The notes under the pieces were generated by a model. The model was not told where the DNA came from and made no database searches. It was given only the letters and a program-made list of their open reading frames with translations. A stretch of DNA of 35,920 nt, taken from Candidatus Latescibacterota bacterium (GTDB lineage: Bacteria; Latescibacterota; UBA2968). Shown here piece after piece: positions 22,991 through 28,582 of the stretch (position 1 is the stretch's first letter; the number at the start of each line of letters is the position of its first letter). The position numbers were made by a program, and so were the translations under genes. The stretch is from the NCBI GenBank assembly GCA_038279365.1, contig JAYODI010000027.1, forward strand, positions 1 to 35,920. The letters run 5' to 3'.

Positions 22991-23773
22991 TTAAGCAGAT
23001 AACACATAATAAGACTCTCGTGGTAAAGGAATGGCCTGCATCTGCAAGTGTAAATCATTGGCCAATTGTTCAACAACGCCATCGTAATGCGCGACCATAC
23101 CCTTGTTGTAACCACCAATAGATTGAGAAGGAAAAGAAACCACAATATGTGGCACCCGAAGCGCTTTCAAAATGGCCAAACTGGCTCCTTTTTCCTGTTG
23201 TTCCAAACAAGGCAATGCCTTAAATAAAAAAACCACGTCTGCGTTCCAATTGGGCACAGACACCAACAAATCGCTACAAACAGAAATGCCATTAAATTTC
23301 ATATTTTCAAAGAACTTACCAATACAATTTGCCAATCCCATATCAATATCACAGGCCATATATGCATCAATGGCCCCCATCCAGGGCAATGTAAAGGGAT
23401 TCAGACCACAAGCCAAATCCATCACCCGTTTGGGTTGCCCAGTAACAGACCAAATGGCATCAAAAACGGTTTCCAGATCATCAACACGTTCTGCCGTAGA
23501 AACATGCGTGCGCAATATTTGCTCGCATATCGGTTTGGGGTCTTGGTCATCTACCTGCTCAACCAACGCCAAAATCTGATCCGCATTCACCTGCCCCACA
23601 TAAGCGCCATAAACCTGATGTAACTTCCGTTTGGCCGCTTTGGTCGCCACCTTGAGAGATGAATTTTGCGCCAATGCCCACTGTGCCATGCGCCCCAGTG
23701 TTTCATCACACAAATCGCGATATTTTCGGCTATGCCTCAATTGCGCAATAATTTTGGCTTCGTTCTCTGACAT
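22991..23773 (-). CDS. ArmA/Rmt/Sgm (FmrO) family 16S rRNA (guanine-1405-N7)-methyltransferase homolog
   Basis: 'KRKLHQVYGAY', 'HVSTAER', SAM-binding 'DLACGLNP', 'DID', 'FKALPCLEQQ', 'VVSFPSQSIGG...GM...Y'. Confidence 0.88.
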   Translation of the reverse strand: MSENEAKIIAQLRHSRKYRDLCDETLGRMAQWALAQNSSLKVATKAAKRKLHQVYGAYVGQVNADQILALVEQVDDQDPKPICEQILRTHVSTAERVDDLETVFDAIWSVTGQPKRVMDLACGLNPFTLPWMGAIDAYMACDIDMGLANCIGKFFENMKFNGISVCSDLLVSVPNWNADVVFLFKALPCLEQQEKGASLAILKALRVPHIVVSFPSQSIGGYNKGMVAHYDGVVEQLANDLHLQMQAIPLPRESYYVLSA

Positions 23774-23775
23774 TT

Positions 23776-24879
23776 TTACAACCCCAGAGACCGATTTTCG
23801 GTGCTTTCCAACCTCTGACGACTCAAAATAGACAATTGCGCCATCATTCTGGCATAAAACCGCACGTTGTGAATGGTGGCCAACCGAAAAGCCAATGTGT
23901 CGTTAATTTTAAACAGATGGTGCAAATAGGCGCGGGAATAGTTTTGACAACACAAACAATCACAAGTTGGATCGACTGGTTCCGAATCGCGCCCATGCCG
24001 TTCGTCGTCTACATAAAGATACCGATAAAAATCGGCATCTAAATTCACACGATCAGGGGCATCGTGAAACACATATAATCGCTTTTGTCTGGCATCTCGT
24101 GTGGGAAGCGTACAATCGAAGGTGTCATATCCCAAACGAAAAGCACGCACCACATTTTCTAACTTGCCAATTCCCAACGCATGTTTGGGCACATCATTGG
24201 GCAACAATTCGGCCACCCAAGCAACCGCCTCCACCAAAGCCCCATCATCAGCAATGGGCCAGCCACCAAATCCAAACCCATCAAAACCAATTTCAAGCAT
24301 TTGGGCCACACACTGCTTGCGCAAATCGAAATCCATGCCCCCTTGTATCACACCAAACAACTTTGTTCCATCTCGATTCCTTCTGCGATCAAACTCATCA
24401 CGGCATTGTTGGGCCCACGCCACCGTATGTTTCACACTTAACTGTTGTTCTTCCACACTTGCATTGGGGTGCGTGCAATGATCGAGACAAAACATCACAT
24501 CGGCCCCTATATGAAACTGTTTTTGGATGCACTTTTCTGGTGTCAATGTTTGTTTTTTGCCATTATCCAACCGATAAACAAAACCTTTTTTAGAAATAGA
24601 ACCCGACTTTGGGTTCTCTGCAATCAACGAAAAGACCTGAAAACCACCCGAATCAGACATCACAGGTTTGTGCCACCCCATAAATGCATGAATTCCCCCC
24701 ATTTGTTTCACCACTGTCGTACCAGGATGAGAAGAAAGGTGTAGGGCATTCACCATCATCGCCTCTATGCCACAGGCAGCCACATCACTGGCATCTAAGG
24801 CGCGAATCACACCACGGGTGCCATCAGGTAAAAATGCGGGACATTGCAATGTTCCATGTGCGGTTTGGATCGTTTTCAT
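23776..24879 (-). CDS. tgt: tRNA-guanine transglycosylase family protein (atypical pocket)
   Basis: 'DSGGFQVFSL', 'LDHCT', 'GVIQGG', 'ALGIG', 'FDCTLPTRDAR', Zn site 'CDCLCC...IHN'. Confidence 0.88.
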   Translation of the reverse strand: MKTIQTAHGTLQCPAFLPDGTRGVIRALDASDVAACGIEAMMVNALHLSSHPGTTVVKQMGGIHAFMGWHKPVMSDSGGFQVFSLIAENPKSGSISKKGFVYRLDNGKKQTLTPEKCIQKQFHIGADVMFCLDHCTHPNASVEEQQLSVKHTVAWAQQCRDEFDRRRNRDGTKLFGVIQGGMDFDLRKQCVAQMLEIGFDGFGFGGWPIADDGALVEAVAWVAELLPNDVPKHALGIGKLENVVRAFRLGYDTFDCTLPTRDARQKRLYVFHDAPDRVNLDADFYRYLYVDDERHGRDSEPVDPTCDCLCCQNYSRAYLHHLFKINDTLAFRLATIHNVRFYARMMAQLSILSRQRLESTENRSLGL

Positions 24880-25890
24880 TTACGCTTCATCCAAGCCCAA
24901 ACCAGTCAAATCGGCCATGCGCCCCTCTTGCTCGGCTTCGTATAATCGCCAAATCACACGCAACCCTTGCAAACTTCCTTGCCCATCGGTTAAGGGCTGT
25001 TGGCCAGTTTCAATACAATCTAAAAAATGAGCCATTTCATTTTCGGTGTGTTTGCCCGACTCAGACTCCAACAGCAGTGTTTCTTCACCCCGATGAATAT
25101 GTATCAATTTGCTGCCTGTAATATCGGCCTCTATTAACCCTTCTGTGCAATGCGCATGAATGGCATATCGCAAACGAGACCCTCGAGCGCCCCACGTGCC
25201 AAAATGATACCCCAACCGCCCCTGCTCAAATTCAATGGTCACATTGCTGGTACCTTCACGTTCCATCCACGGTGTGCCCAAATTGGTGCCCATATGAATC
25301 CCTTTAACAGGGCGCCCCAAAAACCACAACAACAAGTCAACATAATGGCACCCATGGCTAAACAATTGCCCGCCGCCCAAACGCTCTTTGCTTGATGCCC
25401 AGTGATCTGAGGGATAACGCGTTAGCTGCTCCGTCCAAATAGACACCTGAAACACATCGCCATATTTTTTTTCATCCAATAATTCCTTCATCTTCACCAC
25501 CAAAGGATGAAACCGCATACAATAAGCAATCATTAACACGCGTTTTTTGGCATTGGCCAACTGAATCAATTCTTTGCAAGCCACTTCATAATTGGCCATA
25601 GGCTTTTCCAACAACACATGTTTGCCCGCTTCCAAACATGCTTGTGCAACCGAAAAATGCAAATGATGTGGCAACACCAACAAAACGGCCTCCACGTCAT
25701 CCAAAACATCATGAAAATCTGTGGCAACTTTAATACCCGGAAATTGCACAGCCACCGATTCGGCCCTTTCAAGCACCACATCGACAGCAGCAACCAACTC
25801 GACCCGATCACTTAGGGTTTGAAAGCGCCGCATGTGTGTGCCTCCCATACCCCCACATCCCACAATTGCCAATTTGACCTTATTACTCAT
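24880..25890 (-). CDS. Gfo/Idh/MocA family NAD(P)-dependent oxidoreductase
   Basis: 'AIVGCGGMG', 'LPHHLH', 'AGKHVLLEKPMA', 'GGGQLFSHGCHYVD'. Confidence 0.92.
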   Translation of the reverse strand: MSNKVKLAIVGCGGMGGTHMRRFQTLSDRVELVAAVDVVLERAESVAVQFPGIKVATDFHDVLDDVEAVLLVLPHHLHFSVAQACLEAGKHVLLEKPMANYEVACKELIQLANAKKRVLMIAYCMRFHPLVVKMKELLDEKKYGDVFQVSIWTEQLTRYPSDHWASSKERLGGGQLFSHGCHYVDLLLWFLGRPVKGIHMGTNLGTPWMEREGTSNVTIEFEQGRLGYHFGTWGARGSRLRYAIHAHCTEGLIEADITGSKLIHIHRGEETLLLESESGKHTENEMAHFLDCIETGQQPLTDGQGSLQGLRVIWRLYEAEQEGRMADLTGLGLDEA

Positions 25891-26000: not shown

Positions 26001-26651
26001 TTACGGCAAATGCAACACCTTGTGGATCCGACACGACAACCGCCAGGTGGGATGACGCGATAAAATTTCCAATGCCTTATGCGTGTATTCTGGGCTGCTG
26101 GACTCGGGTTGTAAAAAAACCACATCGGCACGATCTTCGTCTACCATATCTTCTCGAAACATCTTGCCCACAACATACTTTAATTCGGTAATATACGTCA
26201 ACCCATCAGCAATCTCTTTGCGCTTGGGTGATACCGTCCAATGTTCAATCAAATTATACAGCTCAGGATCGGGGTCCACGGTGCCATTGGTCTCTATATG
26301 CAAATGATATCCCGCCTCATGCAATGCCTCACACAAAGGTGTGATATTTTGCCCCAACGGCTCCCCCCCCGTTAAACACACCCACTGTGCCGAATGGCGT
26401 TGAACTTCTGCAACAACCTGTGCAATGGCCATTTCTTCATAGGTGTCAAACTCTGTATCGCAAAAAAAGCAACGCAAATTGCACTTAGACAACCGCACAA
26501 ATGTGGTCGGTTGCCCCACGCGCAGGCCTTCTCCTTCAAGCGAATAAAAAATCTCATTAACCTGCAAAACAGACCCATCTTCACGCCAAATAGGCAAACG
26601 GTCTTTGGGTGCTGGGGGAATCAGTTGCAAAATATTAAAATCGTCTGACAA
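26001..26651 (-). CDS. queE: 7-carboxy-7-deazaguanine synthase-like radical SAM enzyme
   Basis: 'VNEIFYSLEGEG', 'FVRLSKCNLRCFFCDT', 'LTGGEP', 'IETNG', 'VSPK', 'FLQP', 'WRLS..HK'; TTG start with AGGAG SD. Confidence 0.88.
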   Translation of the reverse strand: MSDDFNILQLIPPAPKDRLPIWREDGSVLQVNEIFYSLEGEGLRVGQPTTFVRLSKCNLRCFFCDTEFDTYEEMAIAQVVAEVQRHSAQWVCLTGGEPLGQNITPLCEALHEAGYHLHIETNGTVDPDPELYNLIEHWTVSPKRKEIADGLTYITELKYVVGKMFREDMVDEDRADVVFLQPESSSPEYTHKALEILSRHPTWRLSCRIHKVLHLP

Positions 26652-26899: not shown

Positions 26900-28582
26900 A
26901 TGTACGCTTACGAAGCCATCTTACACAACCAAACAGAACGTGTCAAAGCGGCTTATTCACGCCAAATCTTAGACACACAACACCCCGCATTTGGCGCATT
27001 TCTCTCAGAGCGCAGTGGTGCCCATCCCAATGCCGATCACACGTGCAATGCCTCAGACTTGGCCAGTGCGTGTTATGTTCTTTTAGCCGAAGGATCAACG
27101 CTTGAAAACAATGATGAATTGTTTGAACGCATCCAAAAATCCATTGCCTTTCAAAGAAAGTGGCAACGATCCACAGGCCTCATCGACCTCGTTTCGGTCA
27201 ACTGGGAATCGCCACCCGACACCGGTTTTGTCGTACAATTGTTCTCGCCCATAGTATCTATTGCCCGTCAAAGAGCACAAGCAGGCAACGACCAAGCACA
27301 AGAAATTGCAAATACATTGGGTGAATTTGTACGCAGTGCCGCCAATGGCATGATTGACCGAGGTTTCCATACCCCCAACCACCGTTGGGTTGTTTGCTCC
27401 GGCTTGTCACAAGCCATGGTCTTATATCCCGATCTGCCTGCCCGTGACTATGTCAATCGCATTTTGGCAGAAACCATTGACATCAATACCGACGGTGAAT
27501 TCACCGAACGATCAACGGGTGTTTACAATGCCGTATGTGATCGCTCACTGCGTTTTATGGCCGACAGCCTCAACAAGCCCGAACTGCTCGACGCCGTGCG
27601 CAAAAACCTCGACATTATGGCCCATCTTTTTCACGAAGATGGCACCGTGGTCACCTCCATTTCCAACCGCCAAGACCGTGGGTTGCGCGTCGTACCCGTA
27701 GGCATTGCCGATTCGTTTTACGACATGGCCCAACGCGATCAAAACGGTGTTTGGGCACAAGTGGCCGACAACTTGGCCGCCCAAGGCACCGACCAAGCAC
27801 ACAGCCCGTGGCTGATTCAACCTTTTATGCAAAATCCCAATTACCGCAACGACACATTGGTGCGTCACCCCTTGCCCAACAACTACGCACGTCACTACCC
27901 CATTTCGGGTCTTTGGCGCGTCAAACGCAACAAACTATCGGCCACGGCGGCCACAAACAACCGCACTGCTTTTTCAGTACGCTATGGCAACATCAATTTA
28001 CGTGCCGTCAAATATTCGGGCACCTATATGAACACTTCCAATTTGCAAGCAGACTACATGGAAGCCATTAAAGGCGGTATTCGCCTCACACAAAAAGGCG
28101 CAAACCATCGCACACCTGGTTATGAACTGCCACTCAATAAGGAAGTTCCTCTTGGACAATTTGGCACCGTGCGTAACACACGTGAGCGTTGGACATGTCC
28201 CGAAATAGACCTCACATTGGATATTGTTGAAGTCGAAAAAGGGTTTGATCTCCACTACACCACACAGGGTGGACTGGATCGTGTGCCCATTGAAATAGAA
28301 TGTACGTTTGAAGGCCCAGGCGAATGGGAAACCCAAGACAATGTTTTACAAGTCGACAACGGGCAAAGTGCCATTCTCAAATCGGGTTACGGCACCTTTC
28401 ACTCTGGCACCGAAGGCATTACCATAGGTCCAGGTGCGGGCATTCACAGACATTGGGACATGCGCAACTCTGAACCCGATAAAGAAAGCTTTCGCGTACT
28501 CATTACGCTACAAACGCCCGTTGATCACACCCTCAAAATTCGCTATGGCACGTGGTCACTCTCAGCTCAACAACTGATCTGA
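26900..28582 (+). CDS. Conserved hypothetical protein, probable alpha/alpha-toroid plus beta domain (lyase/heparinase-like architecture)
   Basis: 560-aa ORF with AAGGAG SD; 'SPPDTGF', 'GFHTPNHRWV', 'DGEFTERSTGVYN', 'SNRQD' look like conserved motifs. Fold is inferred. Confidence 0.6.
   Translation: MYAYEAILHNQTERVKAAYSRQILDTQHPAFGAFLSERSGAHPNADHTCNASDLASACYVLLAEGSTLENNDELFERIQKSIAFQRKWQRSTGLIDLVSVNWESPPDTGFVVQLFSPIVSIARQRAQAGNDQAQEIANTLGEFVRSAANGMIDRGFHTPNHRWVVCSGLSQAMVLYPDLPARDYVNRILAETIDINTDGEFTERSTGVYNAVCDRSLRFMADSLNKPELLDAVRKNLDIMAHLFHEDGTVVTSISNRQDRGLRVVPVGIADSFYDMAQRDQNGVWAQVADNLAAQGTDQAHSPWLIQPFMQNPNYRNDTLVRHPLPNNYARHYPISGLWRVKRNKLSATAATNNRTAFSVRYGNINLRAVKYSGTYMNTSNLQADYMEAIKGGIRLTQKGANHRTPGYELPLNKEVPLGQFGTVRNTRERWTCPEIDLTLDIVEVEKGFDLHYTTQGGLDRVPIEIECTFEGPGEWETQDNVLQVDNGQSAILKSGYGTFHSGTEGITIGPGAGIHRHWDMRNSEPDKESFRVLITLQTPVDHTLKIRYGTWSLSAQQLI

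Follow-up and report, generated by a model that had tools for sequence, protein, structure and literature searches.

A Trp-Pro-type paralog of tRNA-guanine transglycosylase is the genetic partner of FmrO-type 16S rRNA methyltransferases

A stretch of 35,920 nucleotides from a Candidatus Latescibacterota bacterium (assembly GCA_038279365.1, contig JAYODI010000027.1; called the window in the following, its genome being G000) encodes on the minus strand (23776..24879) a protein of 367 residues, which is a paralog of tRNA-guanine transglycosylase (TGT) and is named TGTp here. Its base-exchange machinery is intact, and a Trp-Pro pair replaces the Leu231-Ala232 switch of the canonical enzyme. It was revealed that TGTp is not the housekeeping Tgt of the cell and represents a distinct, widespread branch of the TGT family, and that a methyltransferase of the Rmt/FmrO type is its obligate genetic partner. 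This partner, one gene downstream, is the strongest clue to the function of TGTp, while a preliminary description of the sequence had been confined to the base pocket. The paralogy, the sequence signature, the co-occurrence, the fusions, the gene context and the plasmid copies reported below were observed directly. It is proposed, as a reading that we consider evenly balanced, that TGTp would be an RNA-guanine transglycosylase acting together with the methylase on helix 44 of the 16S rRNA.

TGTp matched the family PF01702 with 327.8 bits, and it passed the NCBIfam Tgt equivalog model TIGR00430 narrowly, by 21 bits (327.6 bits versus a cut-off of 306.75). Residue equivalences were taken from a phmmer alignment to the Zymomonas mobilis TGT (chain 1ozm). 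D76 corresponds to Asp102 (DSGG), D255 to Asp280 (FDC), D133 and C135 to Asp156 and Cys158 (LDHCT), Q179 to Gln203 (IQGG) and L235 (ALGIG) to Met260, and the zinc ligands were aligned as C306/C308/C311/H337 (CxCxxC...H). The segment G206-W207-P208-I209-A210-D211, whose codons were located by direct translation at 24247..24264 (minus strand), corresponds to G230-L231-A232-V233-G234-E235, and the motif F-L-P-D-G-T, likewise translated directly from 24817..24834 (minus strand), has Asp19 in place of Val45 of the canonical FMPVGT. These equivalences had all been proposed by eye in the preliminary description and were reproduced by the formal alignment, which placed G206-D211 within the 230-235 loop and not outside of it, the outcome that had been named as speaking against a remodelled pocket. 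The equivalents of Arg286, Arg289 and Lys264 and of the dimer hot-spot residues, which serve U35 binding and dimer contacts in canonical Tgt, are also kept. The superposition that had been suggested was performed with an AlphaFold2 model of TGTp (predicted local distance difference test score 93, predicted template modelling score 0.90), and it matched the Z. mobilis TGT structures with template modelling scores of 0.81-0.87, root-mean-square deviations of 2.7-3.6 Å and 30-33% identity. The protein ends at the zinc subdomain and has no PUA domain. Relative to canonical TGT, about 13 residues are inserted behind the PTRDAR strand, and they include a conserved F-Y..Y motif.

In the Z. mobilis enzyme, N7 of guanine and likewise the preQ0 nitrile are recognised by the NH of Ala232 and the aminomethyl group of preQ1 by the carbonyl of Leu231, and Glu235 backs the flip between the two states of the 231-232 switch. 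A proline at position 232 has no NH, so that Glu235 would not be needed and the pocket would offer the carbonyl alone. Such a carbonyl-only pocket, with the new Trp and the nearby new Asp, would suit a 7-substituent that is a hydrogen-bond donor or is cationic, as in preQ1 or in 7-methylguanine (m7G). The pocket may be locked in a preQ1-type state, or it may be fitted to the cationic m7G.

The genome of the window also encodes a canonical TGT with FMPVGT and Glu235 retained (543.9 versus 328.2 Pfam bits), and both proteins were present in all 11 carrier genomes checked, which represent at least five phyla. In a quick maximum-likelihood tree, in which the canonical rows served as the sole outgroup, six canonical rows were split from 72 TGTp rows with a support of 99 in the Shimodaira-Hasegawa-like approximate likelihood ratio test (SH-aLRT). 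The row of locus L029, a wrong crude gene call with a branch length of 10, was excluded from the identity correlation given below. The signature was counted in the best 120 database relatives of TGTp, which are 54-100% identical to it. Trp-Pro was found in 118 of them and Asp at the position of Val45 in 116, the remaining two and four sequences, respectively, having no regular-expression match. By contrast, not one of the 101 canonical TGTs that gave a match for the pocket loop (from a sample of 116) had Pro at position 232; all 101 had Glu or Asp at position 235, and Val45 was present in 115 of the 116. In an alignment of 29 rows (A1) W207 and P208 were invariant and the position of Glu235 was not conserved, and position 233 was Ile, Val or Leu in all TGTp motifs seen. 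A comparison of the 120 TGTp sequences with 122 canonical ones yielded further fixed differences (Thr101 to Ser, Met260 to Leu, Val262 to Ile, Asp267 to Asn, and T-H-P after Cys158), whereas the catalytic and guanine-face residues are at least 95% conserved in both sets and the zinc residues are common to them. Judged from these alignments, the Trp-Pro pocket pattern is a family signature rather than chance.

The claim of the preliminary description that TGTp is not an ordinary preQ1-inserting Tgt is supported by the paralogy, the separate clade and the fixed signature. A different inserted base is not the sole reading; TGTp may instead differ from canonical Tgt in the RNA that it acts on or in the base that it releases. 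Relatives of TGTp are encoded in at least 551 species genomes. The name given to them in public records, plasmid copies included, is "tRNA guanosine(34) transglycosylase Tgt"; this is probably over-annotation of a systematic kind, which arises because the equivalog cut-off is narrowly passed. Two observations concern the relatives themselves. Six TGTp genes contain one in-frame stop (G067, G046, G004/L092, G331, G388 and G355; TGA in five, TAA in one), which could reflect decay, recoding or sequencing error, and a search with an actinobacterial TGTp as query matched only uncultured sources.

The TGTp gene is followed in the window by the gene of a 16S rRNA (guanine1405-N7) methyltransferase homolog of the Rmt/FmrO family (22991..23773, minus strand, 260 residues), the start of which was read two bases past the TGTp stop codon. 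With this methyltransferase as query, an FmrO-type open reading frame was found in 77 of 80 related loci from many phyla, mostly directly downstream of the TGTp gene; among 52 crude gene calls there were 40 in which the two genes are spaced by -24 to +25 bases. As to the three other loci, L057 ends 91 bases past the TGT gene and the genomes of L057 and L072 carry FmrO elsewhere, while no FmrO was found in the genome of L012. The 168 genomes of the phylum of the window gave a bimodal distribution with the TGTp profile, 20 genomes scoring 491-648 bits and all other hits at most 323 bits. The same 20 genomes carry TGTp and FmrO, on one contig in 19 of them, and the other 148 carry neither. For the Chloroflexota an even sample of 301 genomes was used, one of which (G213) is unpublished and supports no claim made here. 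TGTp was present in 57 of them and FmrO in all of these 57, including cases with the two genes on different contigs (G265, G337, G241) or 6-7 kb apart. FmrO without TGTp occurred in four of the 301, namely two fragments, one gene 517 bases from a contig end, and one case without explanation. FmrO was found in none of 14 control genomes.

The pairwise identity matrices of TGTp and its partner were correlated with a Pearson coefficient of 0.79 for 57 pairs, a value that was not reached in any of 2000 permutations, and the TGTp tree and the methylase tree show matching groupings. The mean identity is 52% for TGTp versus 35% for the partner, which argues that selection acts on TGTp itself. An all-against-all clustering of open reading frames, in which single linkage merged families via spurious reading frames in high-GC loci, was used only for the result that nothing beyond the TGTp-FmrO pair is widely shared among the loci. 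Several variations of the arrangement were seen. Many Chloroflexota loci (L034, L035, L044, L053, L076, L080 and others) have a tandem pair of FmrO-family genes after TGTp, and a second FmrO copy lies upstream in L009, L019, L020, L028 and L030. In two Bacillota loci the S component of an energy-coupling factor (ECF) transporter follows the pair (L038:7973-8611 and L039:7889-8614), and a nucleotidyltransferase-domain gene precedes it in L038, L039 and L040.

The partner matched PF07091 with 155.3 bits and the NCBIfam Rmt family model NF000466 with 223 bits, which is below its cut-off of 250. Against chains of the Protein Data Bank it scored 134 bits with RmtB, 129 with Sgm and 116 with RmtC, RmtA-type chains were aligned as well, and it is 30-35% identical to the acquired RmtB, RmtD, RmtC, RmtF and ArmA. 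According to the accessible text of PMC10054953, RmtC uses Lys20/Tyr21, Arg50, His54, Tyr60, Asp160, Lys204 and Met245 for docking to the 30S subunit and for holding G1405, and it distorts helix 44 and flips U1495. These docking and G1405 residues have conserved equivalents in 30 partner sequences, in which Y18, K185, D142 and K224 are at least 90% conserved and H52, D119, G123 and M226 are invariant; the equivalents of Tyr21, His54, the acidic residues of motif I and of ribose binding, Lys204 and Met245 are kept. By these sequence features the partner belongs with the resistance methylases, as a predicted G1405 enzyme. Compared with RmtB, RmtC, Sgm and ArmA it has the same PF07091 match and key residues, and it differs in staying below the NF000466 cut-off, in being chromosomal and in being paired with TGTp; its activity is a prediction.

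In the methylase tree, the acquired RmtB, RmtC, RmtD, RmtE, RmtG and ArmA fall within the diversity of the TGTp-linked enzymes. RmtD2 is joined first by RmtG and then by RmtB; ArmA has no resolved position. In quick trees with long branches, RmtC (L093) groups with Ignavibacteriales partners (SH-aLRT 90) and RmtE2 (L100) with an Oscillospiraceae partner (SH-aLRT 94), the TGTp genes of the latter two also grouping together (SH-aLRT 97). These groupings (L093, L100, L073, L019, L030) may be taken as hints to environmental sources of the acquired genes. Uncharacterised Chloroflexi homologs of the methylases are mentioned in a figure legend (10.1101/712810, in the part of the source that was available).

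On clinical plasmids, TGTp genes were found next to acquired methylase genes. On a Klebsiella plasmid a gene annotated as Tgt lies 18 bases upstream of rmtD2; its product is 46% identical to the TGTp of the window over 359 residues, and has the motifs FFPDAT, GGWPL and PTREAR. A tblastn search with this gene yielded 71 plasmid records, 12 of them with at least 60% identity. Another plasmid has the order rsmH-tgt-rmtG, followed by a methyltransferase fragment and IS91, and in a third arrangement tgt, a metallophosphoesterase gene and rmtB2 lie between IS91 and IS26. The gene rmtE2 is preceded by a tgt gene that is cut at its 5′ end and stands right after an IS91-family transposase gene (L100:3058-3756, L101:3215-3757); this remnant reads GGFPV, thus Phe-Pro and not Trp-Pro. 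No TGT gene was found within 150 bases of rmtB1, rmtC or armA. The plasmid copies nest inside the TGTp clade. As the acquired methylases nest among the TGTp-linked enzymes and four of them keep a TGTp gene or remnant, it follows that the mobilised unit was the TGTp-methylase operon. The copy of the window belongs to the same family as the plasmid tgt upstream of rmtG and rmtD, but it is chromosomal and lies in the thrS-infC synteny described below; no transposase was seen in the window.

This neighbourhood has been noticed before. A "putative tRNA ribosyltransferase CDS" immediately upstream of an acquired rmtG/rmtD-type gene is recorded in PMC3904158, and PMC9311965 records an operon with rsmH, tgt and rsmL and calls the plasmid gene a tRNA modification gene, so that the published accounts, in their accessible parts, treat the plasmid tgt as a neighbour or as a tRNA gene. 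A search of the literature outside of subscription journals and supplements yielded no study of the pocket, the distribution or the function of TGTp or of the pair.

The RNA target is suggested by fusions and further neighbours. Four clusters of fusion proteins were found, two of TGT with FmrO and two of an RsmI-like protein with TGT, and all four contain GGWP. In 20 of 67 scanned loci, and also in L029, the pair has a TP_methylase (RsmI-type) gene as its immediate neighbour. Of the four carriers tested, G173 and G174 have no other RsmI than this one, and in G003 and G175 it is the best RsmI. RsmH stands ahead of the pair next to rmtG, and in L045 TGTp is preceded by an RsmF-type gene. In the genome of the window, which is 98.5% complete, no RsmI (TIGR00096) was found at an E-value of at most 1e-10. 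RsmI and RsmH modify C1402, RsmF modifies C1407 and the FmrO family modifies N7 of G1405, and all three nucleotides are situated at the top of helix 44. The fusions to RsmI and FmrO, which act on the 30S subunit, and the operons with RsmI and RsmH point to rRNA.

A link to 7-deazaguanine was also seen. The operon of the window contains a gene for a QueE-like radical S-adenosylmethionine protein of the 7-carboxy-7-deazaguanine synthase type (26001..26651, minus strand, 216 residues). It stays below every QueE cut-off (best 103 bits versus 300), and it is the only QueE candidate of its genome, being the only or best hit of a protein search and of two QueE models; QueC and QueF are located elsewhere in the genome. 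In L029 the genes for QueE, QueD and QueC lie directly ahead of RsmI, TGTp and FmrO, and in L031 QueA precedes TGTp.

Taken together, it is proposed that TGTp would work on the substrate of its partner, the upper end of helix 44 in the 30S subunit, where it would swap either m7G1405, the product of the partner, or a neighbouring guanine that is followed by U (G1494 or G1497). G34 of tRNA is followed by U, as are these two guanines of the 16S rRNA. In its place, a guanine analogue with a 7-substituent from the queuosine pathway, e.g., preQ1, would be inserted. The most specific form of this proposal, which is tentative and on its own terms rather unlikely, is a "mark and swap" system, in which m7G1405 would be made and then replaced by a 7-deazaguanine. 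The methylase would pick G1405 on the 30S subunit and convert it to the cationic m7G, a ready leaving group; TGTp, without an N7-side NH and with the invariant Trp and the new Asp, would attack m7G1405 and release 7-methylguanine; and it would then install a 7-deazaguanine such as preQ1. As m7G is a far better leaving group than guanine, a TGTp without an N7-directed NH may depend on the prior methylation. In a variant, TGTp would take G1494 or G1497, which would become accessible when helix 44 is forced open by the methylase and U1495 is flipped.

Several points weigh against an action on helix 44. TGTp does pass the Tgt equivalog cut-off, and the retained U35 and dimer residues of Tgt make a tRNA anticodon loop a possible substrate. 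The putative RNA target is deduced from the gene context, and so are the bases that would leave and enter. Related genomes are not independent, so that the co-occurrence counts overstate the support and indicate linkage, not probability, and the fusion clusters have few members. QueE adjoins TGTp in only 6 of 80 loci, and QueC is not discriminating, neither in the phylum of the window (all 20 carriers, 150 of 168 genomes overall) nor in the Chloroflexota (24 of 57 carriers versus 58 of 244 non-carriers). All five carriers without QueC that were checked, however, keep a canonical TGT, which implies salvage of such bases. An Rfam scan of the window and 14 loci revealed no preQ1 or other riboswitch upstream, the sole match being a tRNA in L017. 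Resistance is conferred without TGTp, since rmtB1, rmtC and armA have no TGT gene close by and the copy at rmtE2 is cut. In addition, G1405 cannot occupy two active sites at once, and an action of both enzymes on the same nucleotide would need a hand-off.

An explanation that is considered unlikely and is nevertheless the best of the alternatives is that TGTp acts on tRNA, on G34 of GUN anticodons or another loop guanine, and tunes decoding under m7G1405 or aminoglycosides, so that its link to the methylase would be physiological and not via a shared substrate. The passed equivalog cut-off, the kept equivalents of Arg286, Arg289 and Lys264 and of the dimer hot spot, and the dispensability of TGTp for resistance in new hosts would all fit, and in Vibrio cholerae tgt has reportedly been linked to aminoglycoside tolerance. 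The term "tRNA modification gene" for the plasmid copy in the accessible text of the review PMC9311965 also agrees with it. Against a tRNA substrate stands the canonical TGT, which was present in each of the 11 carriers checked, so that two enzymes would compete for one G34. The RsmI and FmrO fusions and the RsmI and RsmH operons direct attention to rRNA instead, and TGTp and FmrO co-occur almost without exception, whichever of the two is taken as the starting point.

According to a second, more doubtful alternative, TGTp would be an eraser or proof-reader of m7G, on or off target, in rRNA or tRNA, which restores plain guanine and limits the cost of the methylase. A pocket without the N7-reading NH and with an invariant Trp and an invariant Asp would be consistent with it, as cap-binding proteins hold the cationic m7G in a similar way. 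An eraser could do without an extra base supply, in keeping with the lack of QueC in 33 of 57 Chloroflexota carriers, and the gene is often lost or cut after mobilisation of the methylase. However, a writer and an eraser that are co-transcribed, often translationally coupled and even fused look futile, and the links to QueE, QueD and QueC would be left unexplained. Moreover, intact TGTp is kept with rmtD2 and rmtG on plasmids, and the respective isolates are reportedly highly resistant.

It is very improbable that TGTp is just an ordinary, redundant Tgt isozyme that hitch-hikes beside the methylase gene. The names in public records and the canonical fold and catalytic residues are as expected for an isozyme, but the fixed signature unlike that of canonical TGT, the separate clade, the fusions, the co-occurrence with genes on different contigs and the better conservation of TGTp than of its partner (52% versus 35%) all speak against it. 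Least credible of all are the readings that TGTp modifies DNA as a guanine transglycosylase like DpdA, or that it is part of an aminoglycoside-like or 7-deazapurine natural-product cluster. A weak hit to the DpdA model and the QueE-like and sugar-type oxidoreductase genes of the operon could be quoted for them, but that hit has 30.2 bits versus a cut-off of 200. Neither dpd genes nor a 2-deoxy-scyllo-inosose synthase or aminotransferases occur in the window, and the one family-2 glycosyltransferase is unrelated and some 15 kb away from the operon. On the flanks stand thrS, infC, RNase Y and polysaccharide lyases, and it is the two-gene pair alone that is conserved across phyla. A biosynthetic cluster for an aminoglycoside or a 7-deazapurine was rejected for the window on this gene content. 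In the gentamicin and fortimicin clusters, Tgt-like and Que-like genes (GenO/FosA and others) may stand beside a second rRNA methylase gene (GmrB/FmrB). The accessible parts of PMC12090562 and PMC6100412 name genes of these clusters without their families.

Measured against bacterial Tgt (Z. mobilis and E. coli, TIGR00430), TGTp has the same TIM-barrel and zinc subdomain, a similar length, about 32% identity in structure alignments (by tblastn, 38-39% identity to enterobacterial Tgt) and the same Asp102/Asp280, Asp156, Gln203, Gly230, zinc ligands, Arg286, Arg289 and Lys264, whereas it differs in being a paralog in a separate clade with Trp-Pro, Asp for Val45, Leu for Met260, no conserved Glu235 and an FmrO partner. 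DpdA and the archaeal TgtA (archaeosine, G15) share the superfamily and the base-exchange chemistry, and TGTp is nearest to bacterial Tgt by sequence. Identity with DpdA was rejected (NF041059 30.2 bits versus 200, no dpd neighbours), as was identity with the archaeal TgtA (TIGR00432 83.7 bits versus 350, covering residues 112-268 only; no PUA domain). In queuine-inserting TGTs a Gly at position 233 admits the cyclopentenediol; this type was rejected as well, because TGTp has Ile, Val or Leu at this position and scored 183 bits with QTRT1 chains versus 240-248 bits with bacterial Tgt. DpdA and TgtA are precedents for TGT paralogs with a changed nucleic-acid substrate (PMC5699537, accessible text).

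TGTp is an unstudied TGT branch that is tied to the aminoglycoside-resistance methylases. To our knowledge, the known TGT-family enzymes all act on tRNA or, in the case of DpdA, on DNA. If one of its branches works together with a 30S-specific methylase, base exchange would extend to rRNA, or a new specificity at least would be revealed, and there is a real chance that TGTp is the first rRNA base-exchange enzyme. Should mark and swap be true, it would be the first base-exchange modification of rRNA, located in the binding site of the aminoglycosides, and it would be at work in clinical isolates, too, next to rmtD, rmtG and rmtB2. Methylases of the Rmt/FmrO type give high-level aminoglycoside resistance, and the acquired 16S rRNA methylases of pathogens nest among the TGTp-linked enzymes of environmental bacteria, so that the pair bears on antibiotic resistance and points to an unstudied step at the drug-binding site of the ribosome.

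In the window, the pair belongs to a set of four tightly packed genes on the minus strand with the order QueE-like protein, oxidoreductase, TGTp and methyltransferase. The oxidoreductase is of the Gfo/Idh/MocA type (24880..25890, minus strand, 336 residues) and was recognised by Pfam/NCBIfam-type model matches; its stop codon directly abuts the TGTp start. It is kept in only 3 of the 80 related loci and is thus a lineage-specific member of the operon. A scan for promoters and terminators gave consensus matches only, which were not used as evidence. Downstream of the operon follow thrS and then infC, a synteny that is common to related genomes. The rest of the window contains genes for RNase Y, recN, NAD kinase, the futalosine pathway and polysaccharide lyases. 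An open reading frame of 560 residues (26900-28582, plus strand) diverges from the operon and is flanked by heparinase-like and PL14 lyase genes; it matched no Pfam or NCBIfam family and has a strongly conserved counterpart in L003, with 995 bits. Outside of the window, about 116 protein clusters (P0125-P0240) were seen in which a canonical TGT is fused to an MnmC-like methyltransferase domain, giving proteins of about 650-700 residues, an architecture that differs from the fusions of TGTp and is apparently common; PF05430 was matched in all but a few of these rows, and the one sequence that was read, P0125, has FMPVGT and GGLAV.

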